Assembly (NCBI GenBank): GCA_039803925.1
Contig: JBDRZL010000001.1
Location: forward strand, 172,800-236,799
From: a candidate division WOR-3 bacterium
GTDB taxonomy: Bacteria; Hydrothermota; Hydrothermia; Hydrothermales; JAJRUZ01
Length of the DNA stretch: 64,000 bases
Direction: 5' to 3'
The position numbers and the translations under genes are program-made. The notes beneath the pieces are model-generated. The model saw only the letters and a program-made list of their open reading frames with translations, did not search any database and was not told the origin of the DNA. How positions within the stretch are numbered: position 1 is the stretch's first letter; each line of letters begins with the position of its first letter. Below are positions 15,335 to 63,194 of this stretch, piece after piece.

Positions 15335-15941
15335 GTAAGACTACCTCCCTTAAAATGTAAAAATTAAAATTATCAAAGCTTCTTTTTTCAAGCATATCTC
15401 CTTCAAAAATTTTCTCTGGTTCTCCTATTAAACCGATTTCTCCTTCTTTTACAATTGTTTTTAAATCATTAATTTTATTAATAAAATCAGAAATAAGTAT
15501 TAAATATGCCTTTTCTCCTGTTTTAACCGGAAAAACTATTGTGTTACCATATCCACCAAACATATGCATTCTGAAATTTACTTTCAAAAGTTTTGAGTTA
15601 AAAAAATCCTTTATATCTTTTAAAAAGCTAAAAAATTCAGCTTTTTCAAATTTTTTTACAAGTCCCCATAAAATTTCAATCTCGTCACCTATATATTGGT
15701 TAACATATCCTCCATTTTTTTCTGCTATATTTCTTAAATTGGAAAATAAAAGAGAAAGATTTATTTTTAAGTCAAAAAGTTCTATTTTTTCTGTTAGATG
15801 AGTAAATCCTATTATATCCATTCTAAAAACCAGAAGTTCCTTTTCCGTAAAATCTTTACTAATGAAAAAACCACAATTCTGGCAGAAAAAACCTTTTCTA
15901 TCAATTTCCGAACCGCATCTTAAGCATACCTCATAATACAT
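15321..15941 (-). CDS. zinc-ribbon plus small class III nucleotidyl cyclase-homology domain protein
   Basis: A CLRCGSEIDRKGFFCQNCG ribbon is followed by LLVFRMDIIGFTHL and GGYVNQYIGDEIEILWG. These match the CHD metal-binding Asp motifs, while the distal Asn/Arg motif is degenerate (ISDFINKINDL). It is the first gene of a three-gene minus-strand operon. Confidence 0.55.
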   Translation of the reverse strand: MYYEVCLRCGSEIDRKGFFCQNCGFFISKDFTEKELLVFRMDIIGFTHLTEKIELFDLKINLSLLFSNLRNIAEKNGGYVNQYIGDEIEILWGLVKKFEKAEFFSFLKDIKDFFNSKLLKVNFRMHMFGGYGNTIVFPVKTGEKAYLILISDFINKINDLKTIVKEGEIGLIGEPEKIFEGDMLEKRSFDNFNFYILREVVLHGAN

Positions 15942-24124: not shown

Positions 24125-24703
24125 TTATTGACCGGATGTAAGCACAAGACCTATATTTGCTTTGGAACCAAACCCACCAATAGCATAAGCCTGAGCTGCA
24201 TGGGTCGCAGTTGTTGGAGTCCATCCACCACCGGGAAGGAGATCATAAGAACCATACTGAATCATTCCTGCACTACTTATATCCCAGGTACCGTCAAAAA
24301 TACCGTCTCTACCATCATCAACACCACCAGGACCACTTTCAAATGCATTAGTCGCAGCCCTTACAGGGTTATGGAAGTCCACAGGTAATAAAATTGGACC
24401 CCCACTATTATCAGGTTTTGTAGCAGCGGCAATTCCAGCCACACTTGTATTATCGTTACCACGAGGTAAACCAACTTCTTGTCTTGCATTTGCCACAGTT
24501 GAGGAAAAATTTACCGGATAGTATCCTTCTGTATATGTAGAAAAAGCTTCAACAGCAGTCTGGGCTGTTTTCATATTACTTTGAACTGCTGCATCTTTTG
24601 CCTTTGACACCATCGCTATGAAGTTTGGTATGGCTATAGCAGCCAGTATACCTATGATCACCACCACGATGAGTAGCTCTATCAGGGTAAAACCTTTTTT
24701 CAT
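24125..24703 (-). CDS. type IV pilin / pseudopilin-like protein (major pilin candidate)
   Basis: The N-terminus MKKGFTLIELLIVVVIIGILAAIAIPNF is the prepilin cleavage/methylation motif. The protein is 192 aa, Gly/Ala/Thr-rich and has no Cys. The true start is at 24703 with SD AGGAGG; the ORF-track start at 24742 is an over-extension. GC content and third-position codon usage are much higher than in neighbouring genes. Confidence 0.8.
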   Translation of the reverse strand: MKKGFTLIELLIVVVIIGILAAIAIPNFIAMVSKAKDAAVQSNMKTAQTAVEAFSTYTEGYYPVNFSSTVANARQEVGLPRGNDNTSVAGIAAATKPDNSGGPILLPVDFHNPVRAATNAFESGPGGVDDGRDGIFDGTWDISSAGMIQYGSYDLLPGGGWTPTTATHAAQAYAIGGFGSKANIGLVLTSGQ

Positions 24704-24727
24704 TTTTTTACCTCCTTTTATTTCACA

Positions 24728-24740
24728 GGGATTCGAACCC
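24728..24740 (-). promoter_or_regulatory. 5' leader mini-hairpin (minus strand GGGTTCGAATCCC) 10 nt upstream of SD AAGGAGG of the pilin gene
   Basis: This is the same T-loop-like motif and the same spacing to the SD as at 5172-5186 and 63148-63160. Confidence 0.45.
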
Positions 24741-24770
24741 AAACAAACTCAATTTTCAATTTAAAAATAA

Positions 24771-27367: not shown

Positions 27368-27886
27368 TTAAGGAAGAATTAAATCAAGGGGACCTTTTAA
27401 TCCATAGGCAGTTATCACATATTTAGAAGCAACTTCTCCTTCAGTTGCAATATTTCCATCTTCCTTAAATCCTGTATAATAAACACACCCTATTGGCGGA
27501 ACAGGAGGTGGACCTGAAAAAAGATTGTCTAAAGCATTTTCATCGGGAAAAAAAGGATTTTTAAAACTCTCATGGGGGAGAAGAAGAGCATTCTGAGAAA
27601 AAGGCGGCTTTCTTCTTCCATCAGCAATGGATTTTTCTCCATCTGGATGACTTACTAAAGAAGGATTAACATCCTTAACCTTTGTATCAATACCACCTGG
27701 ATATTGACCAAGCGATGTAACAGAAAAAATTTCAACAACAGTATGAAGTATATGCATATTATTTTTTAAAGAGGCTTCCCTTGCGTTATTAACAAGTCTT
27801 ATATAATTTACTATTCCTATACTTGAAAGTATTCCAATTATAACAACCACAATCAAAAGTTCAACAAGGGTAAATCCCTTTTTCAT
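27368..27886 (-). CDS. type IV pilin / pseudopilin-like protein, paralog of 24125-24703
   Basis: The N-terminus is MKKGFTLVELLIVVVIIGILSSIG. Its C-terminal region resembles pilin 1 (SGPPPV..VYYTGF..ITAYGLKG versus ESGPGGV..YAIGGFGSK). Unlike pilin 1 it uses the AT-rich codon set. Confidence 0.75.
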   Translation of the reverse strand: MKKGFTLVELLIVVVIIGILSSIGIVNYIRLVNNAREASLKNNMHILHTVVEIFSVTSLGQYPGGIDTKVKDVNPSLVSHPDGEKSIADGRRKPPFSQNALLLPHESFKNPFFPDENALDNLFSGPPPVPPIGCVYYTGFKEDGNIATEGEVASKYVITAYGLKGPLDLILP

Positions 27887-36629: not shown

Positions 36630-37626
36630 ACATTTCCTCCAAAGTTTTTAAAAGAAGCTTTTTTGTATTGATTAAATCCTCTTCATATAAAAGTGAGGCT
36701 TTTGAATGAATATATCTGCATGGAACAGCTATTACACAAGATTTTACTCCTTTATTTGTCAAAGAAATAACTCCTGCATCCGTTGCTCCAGTTAAAGGTA
36801 TTTTCCACTGAAATTTAATATTATTTTTAAAAGCTGCCTTTTCTATATATTTAATTAAAACTTCATCAACTATAAGAGATCTATCCATTTTTGTTATAAC
36901 AGGTCCCCCTCCCATCTTCGGGTAATACTCCTCCTCTGGGTGATATGGTTCAAAAGCAAAAGTTCCTTCAAGAATAAAGGCAAGATCAATATTTTTTCTT
37001 TTTGAAGCAATCCTTGCACCCATAAGACCTGTTTCCTCCTGAGTTGTAAATATTAAAACAGAATCACAGGGTAAAGTATCATCAAGGATTAAAGAAAGAA
37101 GAATAGAACTACCTGCTCTATCATCAAAAGCTTTTCCCTTATAAACTCCTTTTCCAATTTCTTCAAATTTAGTCAAAAAAACACCTTCTTCACCTATATC
37201 TACTTTTCCTTTTGCTTCCTCTTTTGAGTAAACACCTATATCTATTACAAGTTTTTCATAGGTATATTCTATGCTGTTTTTTTTGTGTGGTGGAAGGCTC
37301 GAAATCACACCTTTAACACCATTTAAAAGTTCAACCTCAGTTCCTGGTAATATTTCAGCTTCAAGTCCTCCAAGAGGTTTAAATTTTAAAAAACCATCCT
37401 GGGTATAACCTGTAATTATAAAACCAACCTCATCAATATGAGCCAGAATCGCAATGTTTAAATCTGTTTTATTTTCTCCCTTTTTGTATACATAAATATT
37501 ACCAAAAAAATCCTCTTCATAATTAATCCCTTTTTCCTCCAGTCTTTTTTTAATAAAATTTCTAACTTCTTCCTCTCTTCCAGGAGGCCCTTTTAATTCT
37601 GATAATTCTTTTAAATACTCAATCAT
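36601..37626 (-). CDS. M42 family aminopeptidase (second, tandem paralog)
   Basis: Motifs HIDEVGF and DDRAGS are present. It is 341 aa. It overlaps the downstream M42 paralog by 29 nt. Confidence 0.75.
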   Translation of the reverse strand: MIEYLKELSELKGPPGREEEVRNFIKKRLEEKGINYEEDFFGNIYVYKKGENKTDLNIAILAHIDEVGFIITGYTQDGFLKFKPLGGLEAEILPGTEVELLNGVKGVISSLPPHKKNSIEYTYEKLVIDIGVYSKEEAKGKVDIGEEGVFLTKFEEIGKGVYKGKAFDDRAGSSILLSLILDDTLPCDSVLIFTTQEETGLMGARIASKRKNIDLAFILEGTFAFEPYHPEEEYYPKMGGGPVITKMDRSLIVDEVLIKYIEKAAFKNNIKFQWKIPLTGATDAGVISLTNKGVKSCVIAVPCRYIHSKASLLYEEDLINTKKLLLKTLEEMYGENFKGIV

Positions 37627-40505
37627 CTATTTTTTAAAGTTTTTTTTAAAGAATCTATCTTATTTTTAAAGGGCTCAGGTAGATTACGCATCCTCTCGGT
37701 AAGTTTTATAATCTCTCTCAATTTTTGTGTATCACCTTTCAGATTATATAGGGTCAAAAAGTCCATTATTAAGAAGGGATCAGCAAATCTAAAACTCAAA
37801 GCTTTATTAAAATTCTCCTCTGCTTTATTTAAATCTTTAAGTCCCAAATAACTTTCACCAATCACCCTATAAATCTCAGGAGCCTGAGCTTCTTTTAAAA
37901 TATCCTGAGCCTTCAATAAACCTTTTTCATATTCACCTTTCCTATTATAAAGATCAGCAAGAGTGAGTTTCACTGCAATCCAAGCTCTTTCCTCCTCAGG
38001 TTCACCTGATTTAACATCACCCTGGAAAAGTTCAGAAAATTCAAACTCTTTAATAGCCTTTTCAATTTCTCCAATACTCTGATAATAAAGACCAAGAACT
38101 ATTGCAAGAGAACGATACTGACCAAGTAATCTATCATGAGTTAAATCCTTAAAAACACTTTCATCTTTTTTACCATCTTTCAATATCCCTCTGTATCTAA
38201 ACCTATTATGTAAAAAGTCCTCTGTTTTACTAACATCCATACCTGTTCCAAATGGTGATGTAATTTCCTGTTTGAAAGGTGTAACTCTATAAACCATACC
38301 TTCAAGTAAAAGATAATCTTGAAAATCCCTGTAAGATTTTCTTTCACAGGTCATAGAAAAAAATAAAGGTGGTTTAGGCAATTTGTTTTTACCTTTTTCA
38401 ATTACTTCCTTCATAAATTCTCTTCCATCCCATAAGAAAATTTCAGGTATTGAAACCCCTGTGGGTAATGTTCTTGTTTTCGTATTTTCATTAAATTCAT
38501 AGCCAAATACACCAGCAATAATATCCCTTATCATTATATCTCTCACAAGAACAATATCTTTTTCTGTTCTGAAAGGAATAAGTTTTTTTATTTCATCCTC
38601 TGTAAAATGAATAGGAACTCCCCATCTCTTGAGCTGAATGTTATACCAGTCAGTATTTAAAAGAGAAAGGTTAGCAACAATAACACTCTTCTTATAACCA
38701 AATAAAATCTGTAAAGCCCATAGGGGAAATGTATCATTATCACCGTTTGTAAATACTATTCCACCATCATCAACACAGGAAAGTAAATTATAAGAGTAAT
38801 CTTCAGCAATATAATTTTTACTTCTATCAACTTTATGATAGAAAGCACTTATCTGCCAGATTGGAATAAAAATTGAAAAGATAATAAAGATATATTTTAA
38901 ATAAACACTGAATTTTTCTTTTAAATTTTCAAAAGAAAGTCTTATTATTTCAAAAAGTCCAAATCCAGCATAGAGACCAAAGAAAAAGTATCCAGGAATA
39001 AAAAAGTAATCCCTATCTCTAACCTCTGTAGGAATTGAGTTTAAAAGTTGTAAGAAACTTGGGTTATTTAAATCAAATATTGATAAAACTTCTCTTATTC
39101 TTTGAGAATATAAAAATTTGGGAAACTGCTTTATGAAATTTAGAAAATCTATTAGAGTTGAAGGGTAATTTAAATTTAATTGAACTATTAAACCAAGAGT
39201 TCCTATTATAAAAGCTCCACCAAAAAGAACAAAACTTTTCCAGTCAGAATATATATGCGAAATTATACCTATTATTCCAAGTATTACAATTAAGGGGATA
39301 AACTGCCAGGAAAAATAATAAAAAAATCCCCATATTTGATCTATAAAAGACCAGAATTGATTATAAACAGGAGTTGAAAAAAACTCACCTTGTCTTACAT
39401 TACTTGTCCTTCTTGGATAAATATTCATAGGTTCGTATTGTTTCCTTGATAAAACATCCCAGAAAGATTGCCATGTTTTTGGTTCAACCTGATTTATTGG
39501 AGTATCAAATCTTGACCTTATCAAAAGATAAAATTCAGGTGTAACTCCAATAATTATAAAAATTAAAGCAAAACCCCTTGCATCAAGAAAGAGTTTTGTA
39601 TATATGAAAGTTATAAGTAATAAAAAGATTGTGGAAACAAAAATTAAAATTTTCCACTGCTGAAATATTGAAACCAAGGACAAAATAAATAGAATAAAAT
39701 AAATTATTTCAAAAGAATTAAAAAGAAATTTTTTATTATGCTTTTTCCATATGGAAGTATAAGAAAATAAAGAACCTGTAATTATAAAAAGAAGAAGAGC
39801 CTTCAAACTGAAAGGCTCATATGTTGCCCTTAAAGCTCCTGCAAGAAGCAAAAAAATCCCTATACTGGATAAAAATTCTATATTAAAAATTTCTTCTTTT
39901 TTGATAACTGCAATGAAAATAAGCAAAACAGGAATTATAATAAGAGAAAGTAAATGAATTCCAGAACTTAAAGATAATAAGTAAAAAGCTGTTATAATAT
40001 ACCTAAGGGAATCATTTTTATCTTTTTTCTCCCACCAGAGAAAAAGTAAATACACTGAAAGAGTAATAAATAAGGTTGAAGGAACATAAGTCTCAGCTTC
40101 TATTCCACTCCACCAGGTTGTAAAGGTAAAGGGTGCACATAAAGAACCCATAAAAGCTGAGAAATGCTTTAAAATATCAGGTAGCTTTTTAGAAACCCTG
40201 TTAAAGATTTTATATAAAAGTAAATAGCCAATTCCTGCTGAAAATGCTCCTGAAAGAATAGCAGCAAGAGTAATTTTCTGGACTACATTTAAAAAGGGTA
40301 TAGGGAGCAGAGAAAAGAATCTCCCTACAATAACATAAAAAGGTGTTCCTGGAGGATGAGGTATTCCAAGAATCCAGGAAGTTGCCAAAAATTCACCCAC
40401 ATCCCAGAAAACAATTGTTGGAGCCGTTGTTTTAAGATAAATAACAAAAGTTATTATAAAAGATAAAGAGAAAAAAATTTTTTTTGTTAAATTTTTATTT
40501 TCCAT
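37623..40505 (-). CDS. large polytopic membrane protein with C-terminal TPR repeats (GT-C / DUF2723-like glycosyltransferase candidate)
   Basis: At 960 aa it has more than 12 predicted TM helices. The N-terminal loop reads WDVGEF...GIPHPPGTPFY. The C-terminal ~150 aa are TPR-like. Confidence 0.45.
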   Translation of the reverse strand: MENKNLTKKIFFSLSFIITFVIYLKTTAPTIVFWDVGEFLATSWILGIPHPPGTPFYVIVGRFFSLLPIPFLNVVQKITLAAILSGAFSAGIGYLLLYKIFNRVSKKLPDILKHFSAFMGSLCAPFTFTTWWSGIEAETYVPSTLFITLSVYLLFLWWEKKDKNDSLRYIITAFYLLSLSSGIHLLSLIIIPVLLIFIAVIKKEEIFNIEFLSSIGIFLLLAGALRATYEPFSLKALLLFIITGSLFSYTSIWKKHNKKFLFNSFEIIYFILFILSLVSIFQQWKILIFVSTIFLLLITFIYTKLFLDARGFALIFIIIGVTPEFYLLIRSRFDTPINQVEPKTWQSFWDVLSRKQYEPMNIYPRRTSNVRQGEFFSTPVYNQFWSFIDQIWGFFYYFSWQFIPLIVILGIIGIISHIYSDWKSFVLFGGAFIIGTLGLIVQLNLNYPSTLIDFLNFIKQFPKFLYSQRIREVLSIFDLNNPSFLQLLNSIPTEVRDRDYFFIPGYFFFGLYAGFGLFEIIRLSFENLKEKFSVYLKYIFIIFSIFIPIWQISAFYHKVDRSKNYIAEDYSYNLLSCVDDGGIVFTNGDNDTFPLWALQILFGYKKSVIVANLSLLNTDWYNIQLKRWGVPIHFTEDEIKKLIPFRTEKDIVLVRDIMIRDIIAGVFGYEFNENTKTRTLPTGVSIPEIFLWDGREFMKEVIEKGKNKLPKPPLFFSMTCERKSYRDFQDYLLLEGMVYRVTPFKQEITSPFGTGMDVSKTEDFLHNRFRYRGILKDGKKDESVFKDLTHDRLLGQYRSLAIVLGLYYQSIGEIEKAIKEFEFSELFQGDVKSGEPEEERAWIAVKLTLADLYNRKGEYEKGLLKAQDILKEAQAPEIYRVIGESYLGLKDLNKAEENFNKALSFRFADPFLIMDFLTLYNLKGDTQKLREIIKLTERMRNLPEPFKNKIDSLKKTLKNR

Positions 40506-52115: not shown

Positions 52116-53427
52116 TTCTTATTTCTCCTTCCTTAAAAGGATTGGAACCTTTTTTAGTAAAAATTTTAATTGAAAAATATATAAAAATTAAAGCAGAAAT
52201 AAAACTTAATATGTTAATTAAAAACAGTAAAAAAATTATTTCATTGTTTGATTTAATTATAACATAAGGAATTGTCAAAATCAAAAGCCACATAAGTAAT
52301 ATATTAAAAACAAAATTTTCTCTCTGAATTGCAAAAAATATCCTTGAAAAAAATCTTGTTAAAAGATGAAGTAAAAGAGAAAGGGAGAGCAATAAAAATT
52401 CTGATGTGTAAAAAGTAAATTTATTTTTTGGGAAAAACAAATAAAGAAAGGTTTTCCCTCCGAATATTACAAGAATTGTAAAAGCTAAAACTGATGTAAA
52501 AATTAAAATAAGTGAATAAAAAATTGTTTTGAAAAATTTTTTTCTTTTACCTTCATAATAAGAACTTGCCACATGGGGATAAACTGGAACAAAATAGGAA
52601 TTGAAAAATAACCTTACTGACTGAAAAATTGAAATTTCGGCGGTTAAATTACCAATTAAAGTATCAGAGATATTCTTAATTTTCATAAGTATTATGGGAT
52701 AATTGTAAAAACCTTGGAAAACTGTATTGGAAAAACTCATTGAAAAAATGCCTTCTTTTAAAAAATTGAAATTTGCTTTAAATCTAAAACCTTTTTTTAA
52801 GTAAATAAAATATAAAACAAAGAAAAGAAAATTTGAAAATTCAGAAATAATGTATGGGATTATGAAAATGGGGATTTTATCAATTCCCTTTAAAAAGAAT
52901 AAAAAACCAAAAATTAAAAATATTAAGCCTCTAATAAAAGTAAGTAAACTGAAAAGGTAAAAAAGTTTTTTTCCGAGAAGAATACCCCTACCTATTAATG
53001 AGATGGTTGAAAAAAAATGAGCTAAAAAGGCACATAGAAAAAGGAAAAAACTGTTATTAAACAATTTTTTTAAAAGCAAATCTTTAAAAACAAAGAAAAA
53101 AATAAAAGAAAAAATAAAGGTCAAAAAAACATAAGTAAAAGTTTCATCAAGTAAATCACTGAGCTTTTTATATTCATTTTTAGCTTTCAATTCAGTTATT
53201 TTTCTTGTTAAATAGTCCCTAAATCCTGAACCAAGAAAAAAGGAAGAAAAGGTATAGAAAGAATAAAAAATACCAAGTACTCCTACTCCTTCAGCGCTCA
53301 CAATTTTGCCTACAAAGGATAAATAAAGAAAATAAAATACAGAATTTGAAAAAAGTCCAAAGGTTGACCATACTGTTCCACCAATTAGTCCTTTTGTGAA
53401 TAAAATTTTTTGTAAGATTTCCTTCAA
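52099..53427 (-). CDS. polysaccharide/oligosaccharide flippase-like membrane protein (MOP superfamily, Wzx/MurJ-like)
   Basis: It is 442 aa with about 12 to 14 TM helices. No catalytic motifs are evident, so this is a topology-based call. Confidence 0.4.
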   Translation of the reverse strand: MKEILQKILFTKGLIGGTVWSTFGLFSNSVFYFLYLSFVGKIVSAEGVGVLGIFYSFYTFSSFFLGSGFRDYLTRKITELKAKNEYKKLSDLLDETFTYVFLTFIFSFIFFFVFKDLLLKKLFNNSFFLFLCAFLAHFFSTISLIGRGILLGKKLFYLFSLLTFIRGLIFLIFGFLFFLKGIDKIPIFIIPYIISEFSNFLFFVLYFIYLKKGFRFKANFNFLKEGIFSMSFSNTVFQGFYNYPIILMKIKNISDTLIGNLTAEISIFQSVRLFFNSYFVPVYPHVASSYYEGKRKKFFKTIFYSLILIFTSVLAFTILVIFGGKTFLYLFFPKNKFTFYTSEFLLLSLSLLLHLLTRFFSRIFFAIQRENFVFNILLMWLLILTIPYVIIKSNNEIIFLLFLINILSFISALIFIYFSIKIFTKKGSNPFKEGEIRNENFS

Positions 53428-54017
53428 TCTTCCTTATAATAACCCATTGATAAACCAAAGGAAAAATTAATACCCTTTAAAGGATTTGAAATTATAAAGT
53501 CTGAAAAATCTGGCCTATCAAGAAAATATCCTGAAGAATAAATTCCTTCCATTCTTAAATATAAGGTAAAAATTCCTGGCATTTCTCTTGTTAAATTTAT
53601 GTTAAACTCAACACCACCCTTTATCACTGGATAAACATAATTTCTATAACTTTTACCTTTAAGTATAAGTTCCTGAAAACTTGTTCCTATTCCGACAATT
53701 GGATAAATACCAAGAATATCTGACTTAAGTAAGTTTGCTCCTCCATCAAGTATTCCTGTCTGAATGTAAAATCTGTTTAACTTATTATCTGAAACAAATT
53801 TATTTTGATGAAAAAGTAAACGCAAAAAAACTTTACCTGGGTTATAAAAACCACCACCAAATCCGTAGCCAAGGGAATAGTTTTTAACCTCCTCAGAATT
53901 CAAAAGTTTAATCTCATTGTTTATACCTTTCAAATCAAGATACTCTGAACCTGATTCAAGGTAAAGGGAAATACAGGAAACTAAAAATAAATTTAAAACA
54001 ATTATTAATTTTTTCAT
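53424..54017 (-). CDS. outer-membrane lipoprotein / small beta-barrel, hypothetical
   Basis: The likely start is M17, MKKLIIVLNLFLVSCIS (lipobox), immediately after the upstream stop. It has Y/G/F-rich beta-strand-like repeats and a C-terminal aromatic. Confidence 0.45.
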   Translation of the reverse strand: MKKLIIVLNLFLVSCISLYLESGSEYLDLKGINNEIKLLNSEEVKNYSLGYGFGGGFYNPGKVFLRLLFHQNKFVSDNKLNRFYIQTGILDGGANLLKSDILGIYPIVGIGTSFQELILKGKSYRNYVYPVIKGGVEFNINLTREMPGIFTLYLRMEGIYSSGYFLDRPDFSDFIISNPLKGINFSFGLSMGYYKED

Positions 54018-54661
54018 TCTATGCCTCCTAAAATTATAAGTGCTCCACCAAGCAAAATTGCCCATATGCCTTCAGGTGGAAAAAAACCAGAGTAACCCAT
54101 CGTTAAATACGGCCCTTGAAGCCATCTTTCAAAGGAAAATTGATAACCCAAGGAAAAATTTAAACAGGGAGAAAATTTACTTTTTTCTCTTTTAAGAATT
54201 TCCTTTGAAAATGTAAACGAAATTTGAAATCCACCCCTTAAATAGGGATAAAAAATAGTTGTAAAATCATTTTTGTAAACCCCATAGGCTTCAGAACTAA
54301 ATATTCCAAGACCTATACCAGCATAGGGATAAATATAAGGTCTCATTCTGTAAAAGGGTAAAACACCAAAATTTATAGAACCCTGTAAATAAGTAAATTT
54401 TGTTTCAACAGCTTTGTATGTATCAGGAGGCGCATATAGCTCTGCCCCACCTTTCCATGTATAACCACCTTGAAAGGAAGCAAAAATTATTGCATTTTGA
54501 TCCCTTGATATAGCATCAAAGGAAAGACCTATCATAGGATCTTCAGGATAGGGGGCCTTTATACTCTTTATATCATCTTTTATAAAAGGTATATCTCCCC
54601 TGTAAAGGGATATAGAACATCCCATTAAGTTTAAAAAAATTAAAAAATTTAATTTTTTCAT
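54014..54661 (-). CDS. outer-membrane small beta-barrel, hypothetical (paralogous to 53424-54017)
   Basis: The start at 54661, MKKLNFLIFLNLMGCSISL, is preceded by a GGAGG SD. Its G/Y-rich alternating pattern is similar to the downstream paralog. Confidence 0.45.
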   Translation of the reverse strand: MKKLNFLIFLNLMGCSISLYRGDIPFIKDDIKSIKAPYPEDPMIGLSFDAISRDQNAIIFASFQGGYTWKGGAELYAPPDTYKAVETKFTYLQGSINFGVLPFYRMRPYIYPYAGIGLGIFSSEAYGVYKNDFTTIFYPYLRGGFQISFTFSKEILKREKSKFSPCLNFSLGYQFSFERWLQGPYLTMGYSGFFPPEGIWAILLGGALIILGGIE

Positions 54662-54751
54662 TTTATCACCTCCCAAATAATTAAATAGCAAATATTATTC
54701 CATTTTAATTTTAAAAAAATTGCACAATTTTAATTCAAATAGTTATAAAAA

Positions 54752-56219: not shown

Positions 56220-57380
56220 ATGGGCAATCTAAAAATTATAAAAGTTGAAAGTAAAAAGGATTTAGAGATTTTTATAGATACTCAAAAAGAAATCTATAAA
56301 GGACTTCCTCTTGTTGGTTATATTGAACCTTTAAAGATTCTGGAAAAAGAGCATTTAAACAAGAAAGGAAAAAATCCCTTATTTAAAAAAGCAAAAGTTG
56401 AATACTTTGTTGCCCTTAGAAATGATAAACCTGTTGGAAGAATAAGTGCATATAAGGCAAATCATAAAGTTTTTGGTGTTGATGAAAAAATAACCGGTTT
56501 TTTTGGACATTTTGAATCAATTCCTGACCAAGAAGTAGCAGATGCACTTCTTGAAGAGGCTGAAAAATTTTTAAAAAAAGAGGGTTCTAAATTAATTATT
56601 GGACCAGCAAGTTTTGCCTATGATGGAGTATATGGGGTTCAGATCAAAGGTTTCGAATACCTTCCCATGGTAATGACACCATGGAACCCGGAATATTATG
56701 CAGACCTTATAGAGGAAAAAGGTTATAAAAAAATTATTGATTTTTTTGCCTGGTTCATACCTTTGTATATTATACATCCAAGGTTATCAAAAATAGTGAA
56801 TGCTGAGGAAAGGTTATATAAGGAAAATGGTATTAAAATTAGGAGAGCCAATTTAAAAGATTTTAAAAATGAACTTCAGAGAGTGAGAGAAGTTTATAAT
56901 AAAGCATGGGAAAATAACTGGGGAACTGTTCCTCTTGATGAGGAAGATATGGAATATATAGCAGAAGAACTAAAACCTGTTATACTTCCAGATGCAGCAC
57001 TTATAGCAGAAGTAAAAGATGAGCCAGTTGGCGTTGCAATAGGAATTCCAAATTTTCTTGAAGCCATAAGAGATTTTAGAGGAAGTTTAAATCCCATGAA
57101 TGTTTTAAAATTAATATGGAGATTAAACAAAATTCCTTTTTCATCAAAAATTCCAAGATTAAAATCAGGAAGGTTACTTATACTTGGAGTAAAAAAGGAA
57201 TATCAGGAAGGAGCTGGTGTTCTAATGGCAGCAAAAATCCTCTTAAAGGGTTATAAACTGGGTTATAGGTATGGAGAAGGCTCACTTACTCTTGAGAATA
57301 ATTTAGAAATAAATAATTTAATTAAAAGATTGGGTGGATTGCCCTATAAGGTTTTTAGAGTTTTTTATAAAGAAATATGA
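56220..57380 (+). CDS. hypothetical protein (GNAT/FemAB-like fold suspected)
   Basis: It is a 386-aa soluble protein. I recognise no firm motifs. It lies divergent from the ALDH gene. Confidence 0.4.
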   Translation: MGNLKIIKVESKKDLEIFIDTQKEIYKGLPLVGYIEPLKILEKEHLNKKGKNPLFKKAKVEYFVALRNDKPVGRISAYKANHKVFGVDEKITGFFGHFESIPDQEVADALLEEAEKFLKKEGSKLIIGPASFAYDGVYGVQIKGFEYLPMVMTPWNPEYYADLIEEKGYKKIIDFFAWFIPLYIIHPRLSKIVNAEERLYKENGIKIRRANLKDFKNELQRVREVYNKAWENNWGTVPLDEEDMEYIAEELKPVILPDAALIAEVKDEPVGVAIGIPNFLEAIRDFRGSLNPMNVLKLIWRLNKIPFSSKIPRLKSGRLLILGVKKEYQEGAGVLMAAKILLKGYKLGYRYGEGSLTLENNLEINNLIKRLGGLPYKVFRVFYKEI

Positions 57381-57631
57381 TGGAAATTTTTGAATGTAAA
57401 AGTTGTGGTTCTTTAATTGGTATTCAGGGAGAAAAAGAGCCTTTATTCTGTCCCTTATGTAGGGGTAAAATGATAAAAATTGAACTTGATGTTGACTTGA
57501 AAGTAAAAATCAAATGTCCTGAATGCGAAAATATATTCTTTGTAAAGGAAAACTTTTCTCCCTATAAATGTGCTTTTTGCAATTTCACCTTCATTTCTTC
57601 CCCTTTCCGTAAATTTGAAGAAAGACTCTAA
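57377..57631 (+). CDS. small zinc-ribbon protein
   Basis: Its 84 aa carry four CxxC pairs (CKSCG, CPLCRG, CPECEN, CAFCN). Its start overlaps the upstream stop. Confidence 0.45.
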   Translation: MMEIFECKSCGSLIGIQGEKEPLFCPLCRGKMIKIELDVDLKVKIKCPECENIFFVKENFSPYKCAFCNFTFISSPFRKFEERL

Positions 57632-58599
57632 TAAAGAATACTAAATATCTGTATTCTTGAATTCATCTGTTCTACCACATAAACTTTTTTATTTCTTATA
57701 AAAATTCCCGCTGGTAACCTGAATTCACCTGGATTCCACCCTATTCCCTCTATACCAAGATATACGTTTCCGTACTTATCAAAAATTTGAATTCTGTGTA
57801 AGAAGGAATCTGTTACATAAATATACCCTTTTTCATCTACTGCTATACCTTTTGGCCTTACAAAAAAACCTGGTGCATTACCAGATTTACCGAAAACATT
57901 AATAACCTCTCCTTTTGGGTTTAAAATCTGAACTCTAAAATTCCCCCATTCACATACATAAATATTTCCTTCTGAATCAAGATTTATTCCAGTTGGATAA
58001 AGAAATTCTCCTGGTTTATTTCCTTTTCTTCCGATTGTATAAAGAAATTGACCCTCAAAGCTAAAAACCTGAATTGCCATGAGACTGTCATCAAGCACAT
58101 ATATCTTTTTTCTGTAATCGTCGACAGTAAGATTAACCGGTTTATAAAGCCCCTTTTTAATAACTAAATTTCCCTCAAATTCAGGTATTTTTATTCCATA
58201 AACTGCTTTTGCACCTGGATCAGCAACAAAAAGCATATTAAGTGCCTCGGAAAAGGCAACTCCTGTGGGTCTTGTGAATCTAAAACTTCTTGTTCCCTGA
58301 TACCATTTAACTATTTTGTTTTTTTGATCTATAAAAACTATAGCAGCAAAACCAGGGTCAGCCACATAAATTCTTTCTTTACTATCAACAAAAATTCCGA
58401 AAGGATATTTTAAAAGTCTTGTTTTTTTTATTCCGAGAATTTTATCTACTGTTCTTTTTATTATATTTCCCTCTCCTACAATATCCTCTTTAGTAAATAA
58501 GATTCCCTCATATTTTATTTTTGCTTCTTCAGGAGGGGGTGGCCATACAAACTCTTTTTTTTCCTGAGAAATTAAAATTAAAAATACTAAAAAATTCAT
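57628..58599 (-). CDS. NHL-repeat beta-propeller protein, secreted
   Basis: It has a signal peptide. About six NHL-like repeats are present (YVADPG, LFVADPG, IYVLDD, IYVCEWGNFRVQIL, IYVTDSFLHRIQIF, VYVVEQMNSRIQIF). It is the last gene of the multiheme cytochrome cluster. Confidence 0.75.
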   Translation of the reverse strand: MNFLVFLILISQEKKEFVWPPPPEEAKIKYEGILFTKEDIVGEGNIIKRTVDKILGIKKTRLLKYPFGIFVDSKERIYVADPGFAAIVFIDQKNKIVKWYQGTRSFRFTRPTGVAFSEALNMLFVADPGAKAVYGIKIPEFEGNLVIKKGLYKPVNLTVDDYRKKIYVLDDSLMAIQVFSFEGQFLYTIGRKGNKPGEFLYPTGINLDSEGNIYVCEWGNFRVQILNPKGEVINVFGKSGNAPGFFVRPKGIAVDEKGYIYVTDSFLHRIQIFDKYGNVYLGIEGIGWNPGEFRLPAGIFIRNKKVYVVEQMNSRIQIFSILY

Positions 58600-59222
58600 C
58601 TTTTAACCTCCGGTTTATGGGGATTATGGCATTTAATACAATCATCACCTTCAAAATGAAAATCAATTTTATGACAGTTATTACATAAATCCAAATTTTT
58701 TAAAAGCTTAGATTTACCTCTATGAAGTTTATGACAATCTATACAGGCTAAACTCAAATGTTTCCCTGAAAAAAGTTCAATCTCTAAATGACATTTTTCA
58801 CAAAAAATAGGATCAATACTTCTTAAAAGGTATTTATAATTCCTTTCATGAGGATCATGGCAGGTTGTGCACTTAATTTCTCTCTCTTTTTCATCAATAG
58901 CATATTTTCTAATGGGGTGATTGTCTTCTTTATAGTTAATTCCTAAAAAAATAGAAGAAGTATCAGGAATTTCATAAAATTTTGCTATATTGCTATATAA
59001 AGTTATAAGATAATTTTTATCAGTATGACAGTTCATACAGGTAAGGGAAACATAGTCAAAATCTTTAAAGTTTTCTTTTAATTCATCATCTGGTATTATT
59101 TTAATAAGAAAAGGACCTTTTGAGTTATGGGATGAATGACAAAATTTACATATCCTCTCTCCTTCTCTATTTCTAAAATCATGAGGAAAATTGACTAAAA
59201 TTAAAAAGAAAAAGAGTTTCAT
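58596..59222 (-). CDS. multiheme c-type cytochrome (7 CxxCH)
   Basis: The heme motifs are CKFCH, CMNCH, CTTCH, CEKCH, CIDCH, CNNCH and CIKCH. It has an N-terminal signal peptide. Confidence 0.85.
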   Translation of the reverse strand: MKLFFFLILVNFPHDFRNREGERICKFCHSSHNSKGPFLIKIIPDDELKENFKDFDYVSLTCMNCHTDKNYLITLYSNIAKFYEIPDTSSIFLGINYKEDNHPIRKYAIDEKEREIKCTTCHDPHERNYKYLLRSIDPIFCEKCHLEIELFSGKHLSLACIDCHKLHRGKSKLLKNLDLCNNCHKIDFHFEGDDCIKCHNPHKPEVKR

Positions 59223-60049
59223 TTCTTATGGCATACAGAACATACAGGTTTATTTGGCCATTTTAAATGAAATCCAAATTTTGTGCCATGAGAGTTGTGA
59301 CAGCTATTACAAAAGATACCTTTTTTATCACCAGGGTGATTTGCAACAGGATGATGGATACCGTATAGTTCCTTTTCATGACAAATTATGCAGAGAGAAT
59401 TGATTTTAGTTTTTAAAAATTTATCCTCCATAGAAGAATGCGGATCATGACATATAACACAATCACCTCTTGCATAGGGACTGTGAAGATAAAAACCTTC
59501 TTCAATTTCATGGCATTCTTTACAAACTTTTTCTGAATTTGGTCTATCAAAAATACTTTTATGACAGTTATCGCAAGCTAATTCCTCAAAGGGTGGATGA
59601 AATCTTAGACCTTTATCAAATTTTTCCTTATGACAGGTAAAACAGTCAAGTTCTTCACTTTTTGAAACTTTTTTATATGTTATTGAATGGCAATTTTTAC
59701 AAAATTTTTCCACTTCTGATTTATGAAAATTATATAATTTTGCATCAACTTTGAAGTTTTCAGAAGGAAGTGAATAAATAATAAGAGTCTGTGATTCAGT
59801 TTTATTATTTTTTTCATAATAAAGAGTTATTTCATTTTTACCATTTTTAAGTTCTACTATAAAATGTTTTATATTTTCAGCTCTAAAAGTATCGTAAATA
59901 ATTTCTGGTTTTAAAAGCCATGCTTTATCAGCTTCAAGGATTATTCTTATAAATCTATCCTTAACAAAGATAGCTGATGGGGGTGTTAAAACTGCAAAAA
60001 AAAGTAAATAAATCAATATTCCGCCTTTCCGTGACATGCAGGTCCGCAT
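59219..60049 (-). CDS. multiheme c-type cytochrome (8 CxxCH) with an N-terminal heme-free domain
   Basis: The heme motifs are CKNCH, CFTCH, CDNCH, CKECH, CVICH, CIICH, CNSCH and CSVCH. The start is probably M5 (MSRKGG, at 60037) rather than 60049. Confidence 0.85.
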   Translation of the reverse strand: MRTCMSRKGGILIYLLFFAVLTPPSAIFVKDRFIRIILEADKAWLLKPEIIYDTFRAENIKHFIVELKNGKNEITLYYEKNNKTESQTLIIYSLPSENFKVDAKLYNFHKSEVEKFCKNCHSITYKKVSKSEELDCFTCHKEKFDKGLRFHPPFEELACDNCHKSIFDRPNSEKVCKECHEIEEGFYLHSPYARGDCVICHDPHSSMEDKFLKTKINSLCIICHEKELYGIHHPVANHPGDKKGIFCNSCHNSHGTKFGFHLKWPNKPVCSVCHKK

Positions 60050-60897
60050 ATTCCTCCTTTTTTATTTTTTTCAAATTTAAAAGTCAATATATAATCATTG
60101 GGACCAAACTTTTTTCCACCTTCAACAAAAAATGGATTATCCGAATAATGGGGATTATGACACAAAGAACAGGTTATTCCCTTATCCTTTTTGACGTGAA
60201 ATTCATGTAAATTTAATCCATTTTTTTTAAAATTAGTTTTTTCTGAAAAAATAGATTCTGGATCATGACAGTTAAAACAGAGTTCATATTGAAGGTATGT
60301 AAAGGTAGTGTAAAGTTTATTTGGATACATTGAATTAAGAAGAAGAGGAAATTGAGAAGAGTGGGGATTATGACAGTTTATACAATTTTCTAAAGGAGGA
60401 TGTTTATATTTTTTTATCTTATAAAAATTTTCCATTTCTGTATGGCATTTAAAACAGAGAGTATTTACCTGATTTAATAAATAAGATTTAGAATTATTAC
60501 CGTGAACATCATGACAATCCTTACAATTACCCTCAATAAAGGGATTATGGATACTTATCAAATTTTTTAAAATTTCTTTATGACAGTTTGAGCAAAGATA
60601 AGGAAGTTTTTCCTTAAGAAGATGATTGATAGGGGAAGAGTGAGGATTATGGCAGATAGAACAGTCCTCATTCACAGGTGGATGTTTCGATGAAGATTTA
60701 TCAGAATGGCAGGATAAACATAGTTCAGTAACATTTTCAATCTTTTTAAATGGGTGTTTTCCGACAAGTTCATGACACGAAGAACAATCTTCTTTTGCAG
60801 GTGGATGGAGAACTTTTTCCTCAATTAATAAATCATGACAACCCTTTTTAATACAATTTTCCTGCTGAAAAATTAAAAATAATAAAATAATTTTCAT
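60013..60897 (-). CDS. multiheme c-type cytochrome (9 CxxCH plus CX3CH and CX4CH candidates)
   Basis: The canonical motifs are CSSCH, CLSCH, CSICH, CSNCH, CKDCH, CFKCH, CINCH, CFNCH and CSLCH. There is also an N-terminal CIKKGCH (CX4CH) and a C-terminal CGPACH (CX3CH). Confidence 0.85.
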   Translation of the reverse strand: MKIILLFLIFQQENCIKKGCHDLLIEEKVLHPPAKEDCSSCHELVGKHPFKKIENVTELCLSCHSDKSSSKHPPVNEDCSICHNPHSSPINHLLKEKLPYLCSNCHKEILKNLISIHNPFIEGNCKDCHDVHGNNSKSYLLNQVNTLCFKCHTEMENFYKIKKYKHPPLENCINCHNPHSSQFPLLLNSMYPNKLYTTFTYLQYELCFNCHDPESIFSEKTNFKKNGLNLHEFHVKKDKGITCSLCHNPHYSDNPFFVEGGKKFGPNDYILTFKFEKNKKGGICGPACHGKAEY

Positions 60898-62471
60898 TTT
60901 AATTTTATATTTCTTTTAACTAAAAAGTGGAAAATTATATTACTTTCACTTTCAGGATATATTAAATAAATATAAGTAAAACCTAAACTTAAAATCAAAT
61001 CCCCATAATTTCTTTCAAAAGCTATTTTTAAATCATTTTCAAATTTCTCACTGAAATAAAATTTTTCCTCCAGAGTGAACATATTGAATAATCTTAAAGG
61101 AGCACTGAAAGAAATTCTTATAAATTCCTTTCTTGTTAAGGAATACTCTGTTTTAATGTATTCATTTACATAACTGAAATTAAAGGGAATTTCTTTTGTG
61201 TTAAATTCTACTCTTGTATGATACTTTATCCAAGTGTTTATATTATTATTTATTCTGGTGATATCTCTGAAATAATAAAAATTTAAGGATAAAAGGTATC
61301 TTTTTGAATTATAACTTAAATTGATTCCTGAATAATAACCGTATTTTTTTTCATTTTTTAAAATCCATGTGTCATTAAAGGTTTTATAATATAAATCAAC
61401 AAAAAATCTCAAATTTTCAAAAATTAAAAAATTTTTTTGTTCATATAAATTACCTTCTTTTAATAGATAGCCCCATCCATTTCCTTCAGGGTTCTGTGAA
61501 AAAAATACTGAAAATCCTGGTGAAATTGTAAGTGTTCTTGGTAAATTTAAAAATTTTAAATAGAAAGTCTGAGAAAAATCCTCATAAAAATTTTTTCCTT
61601 CTTTCAGGGAATTTGTTTGAAAACCTAATGTGGTATTAGAAATAAATCTTTCTGAAAAGAATTTTTTAAATGAGGTATTTAAAAAGTTAGTGGTTGTAAA
61701 TTTTGATCTATTGAAAGAATAGTACATATCAAAAAAGTAATTTCTATTTTTAAAAATATGATATACAAAACTTGAGTTTATGTATGTAAATGAGTTCCTG
61801 AAAAAGTATTTCGTATCCCACTTAAAATTAATATCACCTTTTTTATAGTTATAATTAAAATTAAAATTTTCTATATTCTGGTATAGGCTTTTAAATTCTC
61901 TATTGTAATATAAAGAAAAAGTATTTTCTTTAAAGGAATAATTTGAGGTGAATGCTAAACTTTTTTTATTAAAACTATTTTCTTTTCCCCAGGAATATGA
62001 GAAATTTAAATTAGGAAAATTTCTAATTAATAGTCCCTGCGAGATTATATAAGTTAAAGTTTTTCTTTCAAAAATTATTTTGTCCTCTTTTTTAAAATCT
62101 TCTTTTTTTACAGTAAATTTAAAAGGAAACTTAGATTTTTCTAATAAATTAAGATTAAATAAAAAAGGAGCTTTTAAAAAATTTTTTTCTTCTATACCAT
62201 AAAGATTTTTATTCCAGCTCTGCCATAAAAGGTATGTTTTAAGATTGTAATTTAATAATTCTCTCTTATAAATAAAACCATTAATAAATAAATTTATTGA
62301 ATTTTCATAATCTTTATAAAATGGTTTTGTAAGAGTGTTTTTAAAATTCCCATTTACATAATACCTTTCTGAAAGAAAATATAGATTAAATTTTGTAATT
62401 CCTGCATTCAAAAATGATATTAAAAATAAAGAGGGGAGGATTTTTATCCCCCCCTCTTTAAAGACTATCAC
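60894..62471 (-). CDS. porin-like outer-membrane beta-barrel candidate of a porin-cytochrome complex
   Basis: It is 525 aa with a signal-peptide-like N-terminus (KILPSLFLISFLNAG). It is extremely N/Y/F/K/S-rich with an alternating beta-strand pattern. It sits between the tetraheme and deca-heme cytochrome genes. Its 5' coding end overlaps the terminator hairpin at 62428-62460. Confidence 0.5.
   Translation of the reverse strand: MIVFKEGGIKILPSLFLISFLNAGITKFNLYFLSERYYVNGNFKNTLTKPFYKDYENSINLFINGFIYKRELLNYNLKTYLLWQSWNKNLYGIEEKNFLKAPFLFNLNLLEKSKFPFKFTVKKEDFKKEDKIIFERKTLTYIISQGLLIRNFPNLNFSYSWGKENSFNKKSLAFTSNYSFKENTFSLYYNREFKSLYQNIENFNFNYNYKKGDINFKWDTKYFFRNSFTYINSSFVYHIFKNRNYFFDMYYSFNRSKFTTTNFLNTSFKKFFSERFISNTTLGFQTNSLKEGKNFYEDFSQTFYLKFLNLPRTLTISPGFSVFFSQNPEGNGWGYLLKEGNLYEQKNFLIFENLRFFVDLYYKTFNDTWILKNEKKYGYYSGINLSYNSKRYLLSLNFYYFRDITRINNNINTWIKYHTRVEFNTKEIPFNFSYVNEYIKTEYSLTRKEFIRISFSAPLRLFNMFTLEEKFYFSEKFENDLKIAFERNYGDLILSLGFTYIYLIYPESESNIIFHFLVKRNIKLK
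62428..62460 (-). terminator. intrinsic terminator/attenuator downstream of the tetraheme cytochrome gene
   Basis: The minus strand reads AAGAGGGGGGGGAT-AAAAA-TCCTCCCCTCTTTATTTTTAAT. It is a 9 to 10-bp GC stem followed by a T-rich tract. It lies 34 nt after the cytochrome stop, inside codons 4-15 of the annotated porin-like ORF. Confidence 0.6.
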
Positions 62472-62493
62472 TTTATTCTATTAAACTATATTA

Positions 62494-63126
62494 TTACTTT
62501 CTGTGACAATCAAGACAAATCTGGCTATTGGTTGTATCACCTCTCAGGAATCTATATGCAGGTAAGAAAACATTTGTATTGTGTGGGTCATGACATGTGG
62601 CACAGGTCATAACTGAATCAGCACCTGCCTGCTGGGCTGAAAAATTATAAAGAGGATAAGGCCAACCACTTGGAGGGTTAAACTCTGTACTCGGAAGAAT
62701 TCCTGGTGCAACATCCATATCTACGGGGTGAGAGTAAATAAGAGAATCATTAGTTCCGCTTGTTACATCAGGTGGATTCTGAACAGCAGTTCCCACAGGT
62801 CTGGGACCATATGAATAGAGTGTTCCCATATCAGCTGCAGTCTGAGTTCCATCATGACAGGATAAACAGGCGTAGGTTATCCAGGATGCTCTTGTCATGG
62901 GGTCAGTATATGTTCCGTTATAAAGGGCAGTTATTGTTGGAACATATGCTCTGTTCCAGAGATAATAAAAGTTCTGATTGGGATTAGCATTGTGAGGGGT
63001 ATGACAGTAAATGCATACCTGTCCTACATTGGGTCTATTGAAGTCATGTCTACTTCCCACTACTGTTGCATGGAGCCAAATAAAAAAGGCTCCAAGACTT
63101 ATTATTGCTATTATATATTTTTGCAT
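62494..63126 (-). CDS. tetraheme c-type cytochrome, secreted (210 aa)
   Basis: It has a signal peptide. The heme motifs are CIYCH, CLSCH, CATCH and CLDCH. AAGGAGGG sits 2 nt from the ATG. GC and C-ending codon usage are markedly higher than in flanking genes. Confidence 0.85.
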   Translation of the reverse strand: MQKYIIAIISLGAFFIWLHATVVGSRHDFNRPNVGQVCIYCHTPHNANPNQNFYYLWNRAYVPTITALYNGTYTDPMTRASWITYACLSCHDGTQTAADMGTLYSYGPRPVGTAVQNPPDVTSGTNDSLIYSHPVDMDVAPGILPSTEFNPPSGWPYPLYNFSAQQAGADSVMTCATCHDPHNTNVFLPAYRFLRGDTTNSQICLDCHRK

Positions 63127-63147
63127 ATGTCCCTCCTTTTTTATTAA

Positions 63148-63160
63148 GGATTCGAACCTA
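63148..63160 (-). promoter_or_regulatory. 5' leader mini-hairpin (minus strand AGGTTCGAATCCT) 8 nt upstream of SD AAGGAGGG of the tetraheme cytochrome gene
   Basis: This is the same motif and spacing as at 5172-5186 and 24728-24740. Confidence 0.45.
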
Positions 63161-63194
63161 AAATTATAATTAATAATTTTTAGGTCTATTAATT

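Follow-up and report, generated by a model that had tools for sequence, protein, structure and literature searches.

A block of six genes in the stretch of candidate division WOR-3 DNA analysed here (contig JBDRZL010000001.1, positions 172,800 to 236,799; all 64,000 nucleotides are hereafter the window) probably encodes an OmcE-type cytochrome nanowire system joined to a porin-cytochrome-like conduit. The genes, labelled A to F, are co-directional on the reverse strand and occupy approximately 5.5 kb (57628-63126); they specify a tetraheme cytochrome (A), a putative barrel (B), three further multiheme cytochromes (C, D and E) and a beta-propeller (F; Table 1). Solved structures of cytochrome nanowires come from only a few organisms. 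The omcE-type nanowire cluster is itself already known, as a recently described kind of locus; what is new here is an orphan barrel, a set of MtrA-like cytochromes, an OmcE-like heptaheme paralogue, a conserved terminator and a phylum from which such clusters were not previously reported. An earlier interpretation of the same DNA from its letters alone (the sequence-only reading) had called the block a porin-cytochrome-type cluster for extracellular electron transfer. The electron-transfer interpretation and the core of barrel and multiheme cytochromes stand, since C and D match MtrA, but the nanowire components had been missed. An OmcE-family tetraheme is here combined with a barrel and a propeller, and a lipoprotein cytochrome of the MtrC/OmcB type is lacking, which together argue for an OmcE-type nanowire locus rather than a classical porin-cytochrome conduit (Pcc) or Mtr module.

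The OmcE-family subunit and its gene block

The product of gene A is related over its full length to two cytochromes that have been solved as filaments. In phmmer searches of the PDB it matched the Geobacter sulfurreducens OmcE filament (7tfs_A; E = 1.1e-14, residues 19-210 against 31-232) and, full length, the OmcE of Desulfuromonas soudanensis (9yuq_N; E = 1.5e-14), a homologue that was solved as bundled nanowires (9YUQ; bioRxiv 10.1101/2025.10.22.684050). A family profile made from A and 106 homologues (A4) retrieved the same two chains at 1.4e-56 and 1.1e-50 respectively; its next PDB match was MtrA at 8e-8, covering one paired-CXXCH unit only, while OmcS (6ef8) was marginal (E = 2.9e-4, one short stretch) and the archaeal filament chains gave no match in that search. 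Identity between A and OmcE is only about 30%. The four CXXCH motifs of A are nevertheless invariant across the 107 aligned family members, and when A was aligned with 100 four-heme homologues and the two solved subunits (103 sequences), His27, His45, His133 and His182 proved 99-100% conserved and coincident with histidines of OmcE (7TFS); His19, which lies in the signal peptide, is not conserved. Four CxxCH motifs and four histidines are also the conserved core described for OmcE homologues (bioRxiv 10.1101/2025.10.22.684050), and an N-terminal His-Asp motif is shared with both solved filaments. Given the full-length OmcE matches and the conservation of the four CXXCH motifs and four distal histidines, A is by sequence a bona fide OmcE-family protein in which all eight heme-iron ligands are kept. 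It has a Sec signal peptide, probably cleaved after LHA at residue 20, so that its earlier description as a secreted tetraheme, with four CXXCH motifs in 210 residues, is borne out. The OmcA/MtrC family model gives A 15.8 bits against a cut-off of 209.

Nanowire-competent OmcE homologues have been defined by an adjoining large outer-membrane beta-barrel and beta-propeller lipoprotein, and the minimal omcE cluster as OmcE, two multiheme cytochromes, two propeller lipoproteins and a large barrel; such clusters were reported in five phyla, among which WOR-3 is not listed (bioRxiv 10.1101/2025.10.22.684050). A propeller does stand beside the OmcE homologue in the window, in the form of F. The sequence-only reading had set the tetraheme and the NHL propeller aside as foreign to the classical modules: they are indeed additional to the MtrCAB/Pcc set, but they are the most informative and diagnostic parts of the locus.

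Table 1. Positions of the six genes and of the expression signals around gene A, in window coordinates
Feature	Position	Strand	Length (aa)	Sequence features	Assignment
Gene A	62494-63126	-	210	4 CXXCH	OmcE-family tetraheme c-type cytochrome, putative major nanowire subunit
Gene B	60894-62471	-	525	Cys-free, secreted, F/N/Y-rich	Putative large outer-membrane beta-barrel
Gene C	60013-60897	-	294	9 CXXCH + CX4CH + CX3CH	MtrA/DmsE-like cytochrome
Gene D	59219-60049	-	276	8 CXXCH after a conserved N-terminal domain of ~90 aa free of heme motifs	8-heme cytochrome
Gene E	58596-59222	-	208	7 CXXCH	OmcE-like tetraheme module with three-heme extension
Gene F	57628-58599	-	323	Secreted, without lipobox	NHL-repeat six-bladed beta-propeller
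Hairpin	62417-62460	-		15-bp stem (7 GC pairs), then T-run	Intrinsic-terminator-like hairpin (terminator scan)
Signals ahead of A	63132-63192	-		TTAATA-18-TATAAT (63192-63163); AGGAGG (63137-63132)	Putative promoter; Shine-Dalgarno sequence

All six open reading frames (ORFs) lie where they had first been placed, with a gap of 22 nt between A and B and overlaps of 4 nt (B-C), 37 nt (C-D), 4 nt (D-E) and 4 nt (E-F). Pfam recognizes Paired_CXXCH_1 units in A, C, D and E and NHL repeats in F, and a motif count found CXXCH-bearing ORFs nowhere else in the window. The search for synteny that the sequence-only reading had proposed recovered the same six genes in identical order at four other loci, with protein identities to the window of 31-82% per gene. 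Orthologous loci came from a WOR-3 metagenome-assembled genome (MAG; L001/L003), a Joint Genome Institute metagenome (L002), Logan assemblies (L004/L005) and a Hydrothermales MAG (L006). The genes flanking the block in L001 and L004 differ from those in the window, and the six-gene order is kept; hence these genes form a conserved functional unit and have not come together by chance. Near-identical proteins have been deposited from 'candidate division WOR-3 bacterium' MAGs (A 95% and B 99% identical, the latter annotated 'hypothetical protein'), and A is 82% identical to a protein of 'Candidatus Hydrothermales bacterium'; in current NCBI taxonomy the names of these relatives lead to the phylum Caldifarciminota, order Caldifarciminales.

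The orthologous loci show several further features. In L004 (14856-18827) and L006 (3878-6858) the block is adjoined by an extra gene pair that is absent from the window: one gene for a protein of 349-365 aa (no Pfam match, weakly NHL-like) and one for an 11-12-heme cytochrome of 644-708 aa. In L004, a 7-heme protein and nuo genes are also found beside this pair. The A and D orthologues of L004 (Logan ERR14788553; 9338-9892 and 12426-13187) look frameshifted, A being called as 184 aa with two CXXCH motifs and its true C-terminus (...TICTTCHIK) standing in another frame. The cause is either assembly error or pseudogenisation. At the downstream end of the window block, a 386-aa ORF (no Pfam match) and an 84-aa double zinc-ribbon ORF (56220-57631, forward strand) converge on the cluster, with ORFs that correspond in size and position in L002 and L006 and none in L001 or L004.

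The sequence surrounding A contains signals for its expression. AGGAGG, read directly from the sequence 5 nt ahead of the ATG, is a strong Shine-Dalgarno element. The promoter is a candidate only: it matches the consensus at 10 of 12 positions, in a scan whose promoter-like matches are not enriched over shuffles in such AT-rich DNA. AT-rich inverted repeats upstream of A were considered as operator sites and dropped, as they are not conserved in the orthologous loci. About 30 nt past the stop codon of A, the hairpin (62460-62427) folds at -25.2 kcal/mol (z = -4.16), and equivalent hairpins follow A in L001, L002, L004 and L006 (-22 to -26 kcal/mol, z -3.7 to -5.3), with stem sequences that differ among the five loci. 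A terminator-like hairpin behind the tetraheme gene, in line with the claim of its separate termination, is thus present at all five loci. The window hairpin sits inside the signal-peptide codons of B (62417-62471), its G-run encoding Gly-Gly and its C-run and T-run the hydrophobic core; therefore in some NCBI annotations B begins 20 residues further on, and deposited versions are either 525 aa or 505 aa long, the shorter beginning at a TTG past the hairpin and losing the signal peptide. No structured RNA was found by an Rfam scan of the whole window.

With a strong ribosome-binding site before A and a conserved terminator hairpin after it, much more A than B-F would be made, and the hairpin is a probable attenuator setting a high ratio of A to B-F. 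By analogy with pilus operons, such an architecture is consistent with strong expression of a major subunit and read-through into the accessory genes behind it; the resemblance is not proof. GC content is 41% in A against a window mean of 30%, and lowest within the block in B (22%); at third codon positions it is 0.29 in A against approximately 0.18 in B-F. The higher GC of A could reflect codon bias of high expression, amino-acid composition or a separate evolutionary history. In L008, an OmcE-like cluster in an unrelated 4.7-Mb genome, a 14-bp GC-rich terminator-like hairpin likewise follows the OmcE-like gene (10851-10884, forward strand). No terminator follows the OmcE-like gene of a further cluster, L009, and a terminator in this position is consequently not universal.

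The putative barrel, the accessory cytochromes and the propeller

B begins with a signal peptide, is free of cysteine and is rich in Phe (13%), Asn (12%) and Tyr (9%). Its sequence has no match in Pfam, NCBIfam or, by sequence or profile, the PDB, and an exact-sequence look-up was also negative; four relatives were recovered by word-indexed search and three when 1.84 billion representative proteins were searched exhaustively with a profile. On these searches B is a lineage-restricted sequence orphan. An AlphaFold2 (AF2) model made from five sequences, usable for fold class only, consists almost entirely of beta-hairpins, with about 22 strands in residues 134-505 and a few more before them. The signal peptide and the predicted near-absence of anything except beta-strand speak against a helical or cytoplasmic protein. 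Foldseek matches of the model are nearly all large barrels (TonB-dependent receptors, LptD, PapC), and MtrB is among the best structural matches of this low-confidence model. The fold class is likely a large outer-membrane beta-barrel, putatively of about 22-26 strands, which on the model could act as a putative socket, sheath or secretion pore. Of the earlier description of B as a barrel-like signal-peptide protein rich in Asn, Tyr and Phe, the composition and signal peptide are confirmed, a near-all-beta character is predicted, and the barrel stands at low model confidence; the proposed comparison with MtrB-like barrels did return mostly barrels, MtrB included, but with TM-scores of only 0.2-0.3 and a predicted local distance difference test (pLDDT) score of 50. 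A short 'FPF' motif shared by B and the 616-aa protein of L008 was not significant. Elsewhere in the window (53424-54691, reverse strand), two overlapping ORFs (213 and 225 aa) encode proteins with a signal peptide, a small-barrel-like sequence and no Pfam match; these end, like B, with a few polar residues past the last aromatic strand, and counterparts of approximately 200-223 aa without Pfam matches hold the same position in L002 and L006.

Among the accessory cytochromes, C and D resemble MtrA. Against MtrA in the MtrCAB complex (6r2q_A) C scored E = 9.7e-15 and D 1.5e-12 in the PDB; C has five Paired_CXXCH_1 units and reaches 38 bits on the generic MtrC/MtrF domain II/IV model (cut-off 30). 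On the curated DmsE decaheme model the scores were 97.7 bits for C and 59.4 bits for D, both below the cut-off of 192.2, and the two are by these profile scores MtrA-like heme wires and not MtrA orthologues. The sequence-only reading had counted about 10, 8 and 7 hemes in C, D and E. The counts for D and E hold; in C the variant motifs CX4CH and CX3CH are kept in all orthologues, from which C probably binds 11. C is about the size of MtrA, and the 4-nt overlap of its start with the end of B suggests that the two genes are translationally coupled; C is a candidate for a wire inserted in the B barrel.

E has a different affinity. When its orthologues (A5) were aligned with the OmcE-like family (A4) by hhalign, the probability was 98.7% (E = 3.6e-16, 136 columns), with residues 11-147 of E covering the whole OmcE module, all four CXXCH motifs and the four distal histidines included; a C-terminal extension with three more hemes falls outside the module. 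The match is specific, because C and D, run as controls against the OmcE family, aligned over 30-34 columns that correspond to a single paired-CXXCH unit, as also seen for D with the family profile. E has 15 histidines for its seven hemes. The large cytochromes at the ends of the L008 and L009 clusters also start with an OmcE-like module (E ~4e-14). What initiates and terminates OmcE filaments is a question raised and left unanswered in bioRxiv 10.1101/2025.10.22.684050, and the composition of E makes it a plausible candidate for a base, adaptor or cap subunit of the filament. None of C, D and E has a lipobox, and none matches the OmcA/MtrC family model.

F is the secreted NHL beta-propeller that had been recognized at the outset (Pfam NHL, E = 2.3e-20, in 323 residues) and also matches DUF5128, a six-bladed propeller model. 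Its identity is 35% (E = 6e-60) with the propeller of the L009 cluster and 32% (2e-41) with a propeller of L008; its orthologues have 0-2 cysteines, none at a lipobox position. A putative role is that of an assembly or scaffold factor. The unrelated loci L008, L009 and L010 each combine an OmcE-like gene with small multiheme cytochromes, NHL propellers, a large multiheme cytochrome and a protein of 616-655 aa without Pfam match. The L008 cluster also has a SurA-like peptidyl-prolyl isomerase (PPIase), which recalls OscH of the omcS cluster.

Proposed mechanism and competing explanations

In OmcE wires the interfacial heme takes one histidine from each of two adjacent subunits (2026 review, PMC12954529). 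In the mechanism we propose, A would be the major filament subunit and its interfacial heme would be ligated in the same manner by a histidine of the neighbouring subunit, giving a continuous heme chain; A would be made in large excess over B-F, as a major pilin is over the products of its assembly genes. B would form an outer-membrane barrel that anchors or exports the filament, sheathes C, or both, and C and D would bring electrons out of the periplasm, as far as the barrel or through it. E might dock on the filament end by way of the subunit interface, either linking filament to conduit or capping it, and F may aid assembly or organisation, as has been proposed for the propellers of omcE and omcS clusters. 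The system as a whole would let the respiratory chain exchange electrons, in either direction, with a partner that is insoluble or at a distance, for example a mineral, sulfur or another cell. The homologies, the conserved ligands, the synteny and the hairpin are established by the analysis, whereas polymerisation, localisation, the pairing of B with C, the role of E and the physiology are inferred. A stronger version, to which we give little credence, is a complete 'wire plus socket', in which E nucleates or terminates the OmcE-type filament and connects it to an MtrAB-like conduit of B and C, with the fused modules of L008 and L009 acting likewise; in thermophilic WOR-3 such a system might serve the respiration of insoluble elemental sulfur.

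A number of observations weigh against a nanowire-plus-conduit locus. OmcE-like tetrahemes are very widespread, with 3061 matches, and not all of them need polymerise; the AF2 model of A (107 sequences, without hemes) reached a pLDDT of 52 and retrieved nothing from the PDB by Foldseek, a poor result that is as expected for a coil-rich heme protein modelled without its hemes. The model of B is at the similarly low confidence given above, profile searches of the PDB detect no sequence similarity between B and MtrB, and comparison of the B family with the 655-aa family of L009-type clusters gave an hhalign probability of 0.8% (E = 0.068), in a co-linear N-terminal stretch only. The published minimal composition is departed from, with one non-lipoprotein propeller against two lipoproteins and three cytochromes against two. 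C, E and F have putative signal peptides of unusually small length, and no gene for an inner-membrane quinol dehydrogenase occurs nearby. The only WOR-3 isolate, strain sy37, which may or may not carry the cluster, did not reduce ferric citrate or ferrihydrite (PMC12285271). Finally, the physiological importance of OmcE and OmcS filaments is disputed even in Geobacter (PMC11077965, PMC13194489).

Part of this evidence would suit an ordinary Pcc/Mtr-like conduit, with B as porin, C, D and E as periplasmic and surface cytochromes and A as an abundant, soluble carrier, periplasmic or released, that does not polymerise. C and D do match MtrA, the model of B does resemble MtrB and other barrels, the order of barrel, cytochrome and cytochrome is like that of ombB-omaB-omcB, and OmcE-like tetrahemes are so common that some probably form no filament. 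Such a conduit would leave the second OmcE-like module, in E, without an obvious role, and would have to do without a lipoprotein cytochrome of the MtrC/OmcB type; A, moreover, is full-length kin of two solved OmcE filaments, His-Asp motif and all distal ligands included, in a neighbourhood of propeller and barrel that fits the published definition of nanowire competence. We consider a plain conduit rather unlikely on these grounds. Were the locus a nanowire locus in which B is purely an usher-like pore for secretion or anchoring, nothing would be threaded through the barrel, and C, D and E would be periplasmic relay or storage cytochromes that charge the filament. A porin-like secretion or anchoring role has been proposed for the barrel (bioRxiv 10.1101/2025.10.22.684050, and the osc-cluster work), B has no sequence similarity to MtrB or OmbB, and the PapC usher is among its Foldseek matches; the overlap of the C and B reading frames, the MtrA-like size and heme pattern of C, and the place of MtrB among the best structural matches lean the other way, and we regard an exclusively usher-like B as improbable.

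A multiheme redox enzyme of the periplasm (for example a reductase of nitrite, hydroxylamine, sulfite or tetrathionate) with no part in extracellular electron transfer is very improbable indeed. Weak matches to models of octaheme nitrite reductase, tetrathionate reductase, NrfB and NrfH do exist, but they lie far under the curated cut-offs or at E >= 0.006, and the NrfA-like and octaheme matches are only noise. The proteins have neither CXXCK nor any other catalytic-heme motif, OmcE and MtrA are their best full-length matches, and neither a barrel nor a propeller is a component of such enzymes. A catalytic reductase of the NrfA, octaheme nitrite or tetrathionate reductase, hydroxylamine oxidoreductase or MccA type is effectively excluded by the lack of catalytic motifs and of family-level matches.

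Related systems, host context and significance

The closest known systems are the omcE clusters of Desulfuromonadia (GSU0618, 7TFS; DSOUD_2954, 9YUQ), with which the window shares a tetraheme subunit with identical heme-ligand positions, an adjoining large putative barrel, an NHL-type propeller and multiheme cytochromes. It departs from them in its phylum (WOR-3, Caldifarciminota), in a single propeller without lipobox, and in having three cytochromes instead of two: one that is MtrA-like with about 11 hemes, one with 8 hemes and an extra domain, and the 7-heme OmcE-like paralogue. In addition, sequence comparison detects no relationship between B and the barrel of another OmcE-like cluster, the window block is not adjoined by glycosylation genes, and the terminator is embedded in the signal-peptide codons of the barrel. 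The omcS-companion (osc) cluster of G. sulfurreducens follows a common logic, placing a filament cytochrome beside the channel-like OscEFG and propeller-like OscD; in that cluster (Shen et al. 2025, as summarised in PMC13194489) the subunit is the hexaheme OmcS, where here it is tetraheme and OmcE-like, and the osc cluster includes the PPIase chaperone OscH, whereas Pfam finds no rotamase domain in the six window proteins.

MtrCAB (6R2Q) and Geobacter OmaB/OmbB/OmcB differ from the window locus in possessing a surface lipoprotein cytochrome of the MtrC/OmcA/OmcB type; conversely, the OmcE-type subunit and propeller are additions here, C falls under the DmsE/MtrA cut-off and B lacks sequence similarity to MtrB. 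In Desulfovibrio ferrophilus IS5, multiheme cytochromes co-expressed with NHL propellers have been proposed to form an outer-membrane conduit (PMC5815863); the likeness is by description, and the account of those clusters mentions no barrel and concerns electron uptake. The archaeal PcECN and AvECN share tetraheme subunits, insulated filaments and thermophilic hosts, but belong to archaea without an outer membrane.

The window itself encodes CcmF, an OmpA-family protein and a TonB C-terminal domain, which fits an outer-membrane bacterium able to make c-type cytochromes. The CcmF-type gene (System I heme lyase; 16085-17968, reverse strand) lies approximately 40 kb from the cytochrome cluster and is adjoined by a 206-aa ORF (15321-15941) without Pfam match. 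Strain sy37, which belongs to the class Hydrothermia, has inner and outer membranes, and pili have been seen on it by negative staining; it can respire with either O2 or elemental sulfur, and lacks any known sulfur reductase (PMC12285271). Any link between the cluster and sulfur respiration is speculation. The words 'heme', 'iron' and 'nanowire' do not occur in a genomic survey of 181 WOR-3 MAGs (PMC12542636).

Other genes of the window are recorded for completeness. Two ORFs with the type IV pilin N_methyl motif (24125-24742 and 27368-27886, reverse strand) lie near an ABC-2 transporter pair, and two large overlapping ORFs of no clear function (9745-15334, reverse strand) specify proteins of 989 aa, with an AAA_16 ATPase domain, and of 879 aa, with HEAT repeats. 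At 37623-40505 (reverse strand) lies the gene for a TMEM260-like protein O-mannosyltransferase of 960 aa; OmcE of G. sulfurreducens is reportedly glycosylated.

The locus extends OmcE-type clusters beyond the five reported phyla to WOR-3 (Caldifarciminota), a thermophile-rich and almost uncultured lineage. By implication, extracellular electron exchange is a capacity of hot-spring and vent communities that has so far gone unrecognised in this lineage. With six genes in 5.5 kb it is among the most compact candidate nanowire-plus-conduit units, and on that account an attractive subject for heterologous expression and for studies that dissect assembly. The OmcE-like heptaheme E and the conserved terminator after A offer leads on how filaments are anchored, initiated and terminated, and on subunit stoichiometry. 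If E, B and C did form a socket for the filament, this would answer how cytochrome nanowires are anchored and charged.

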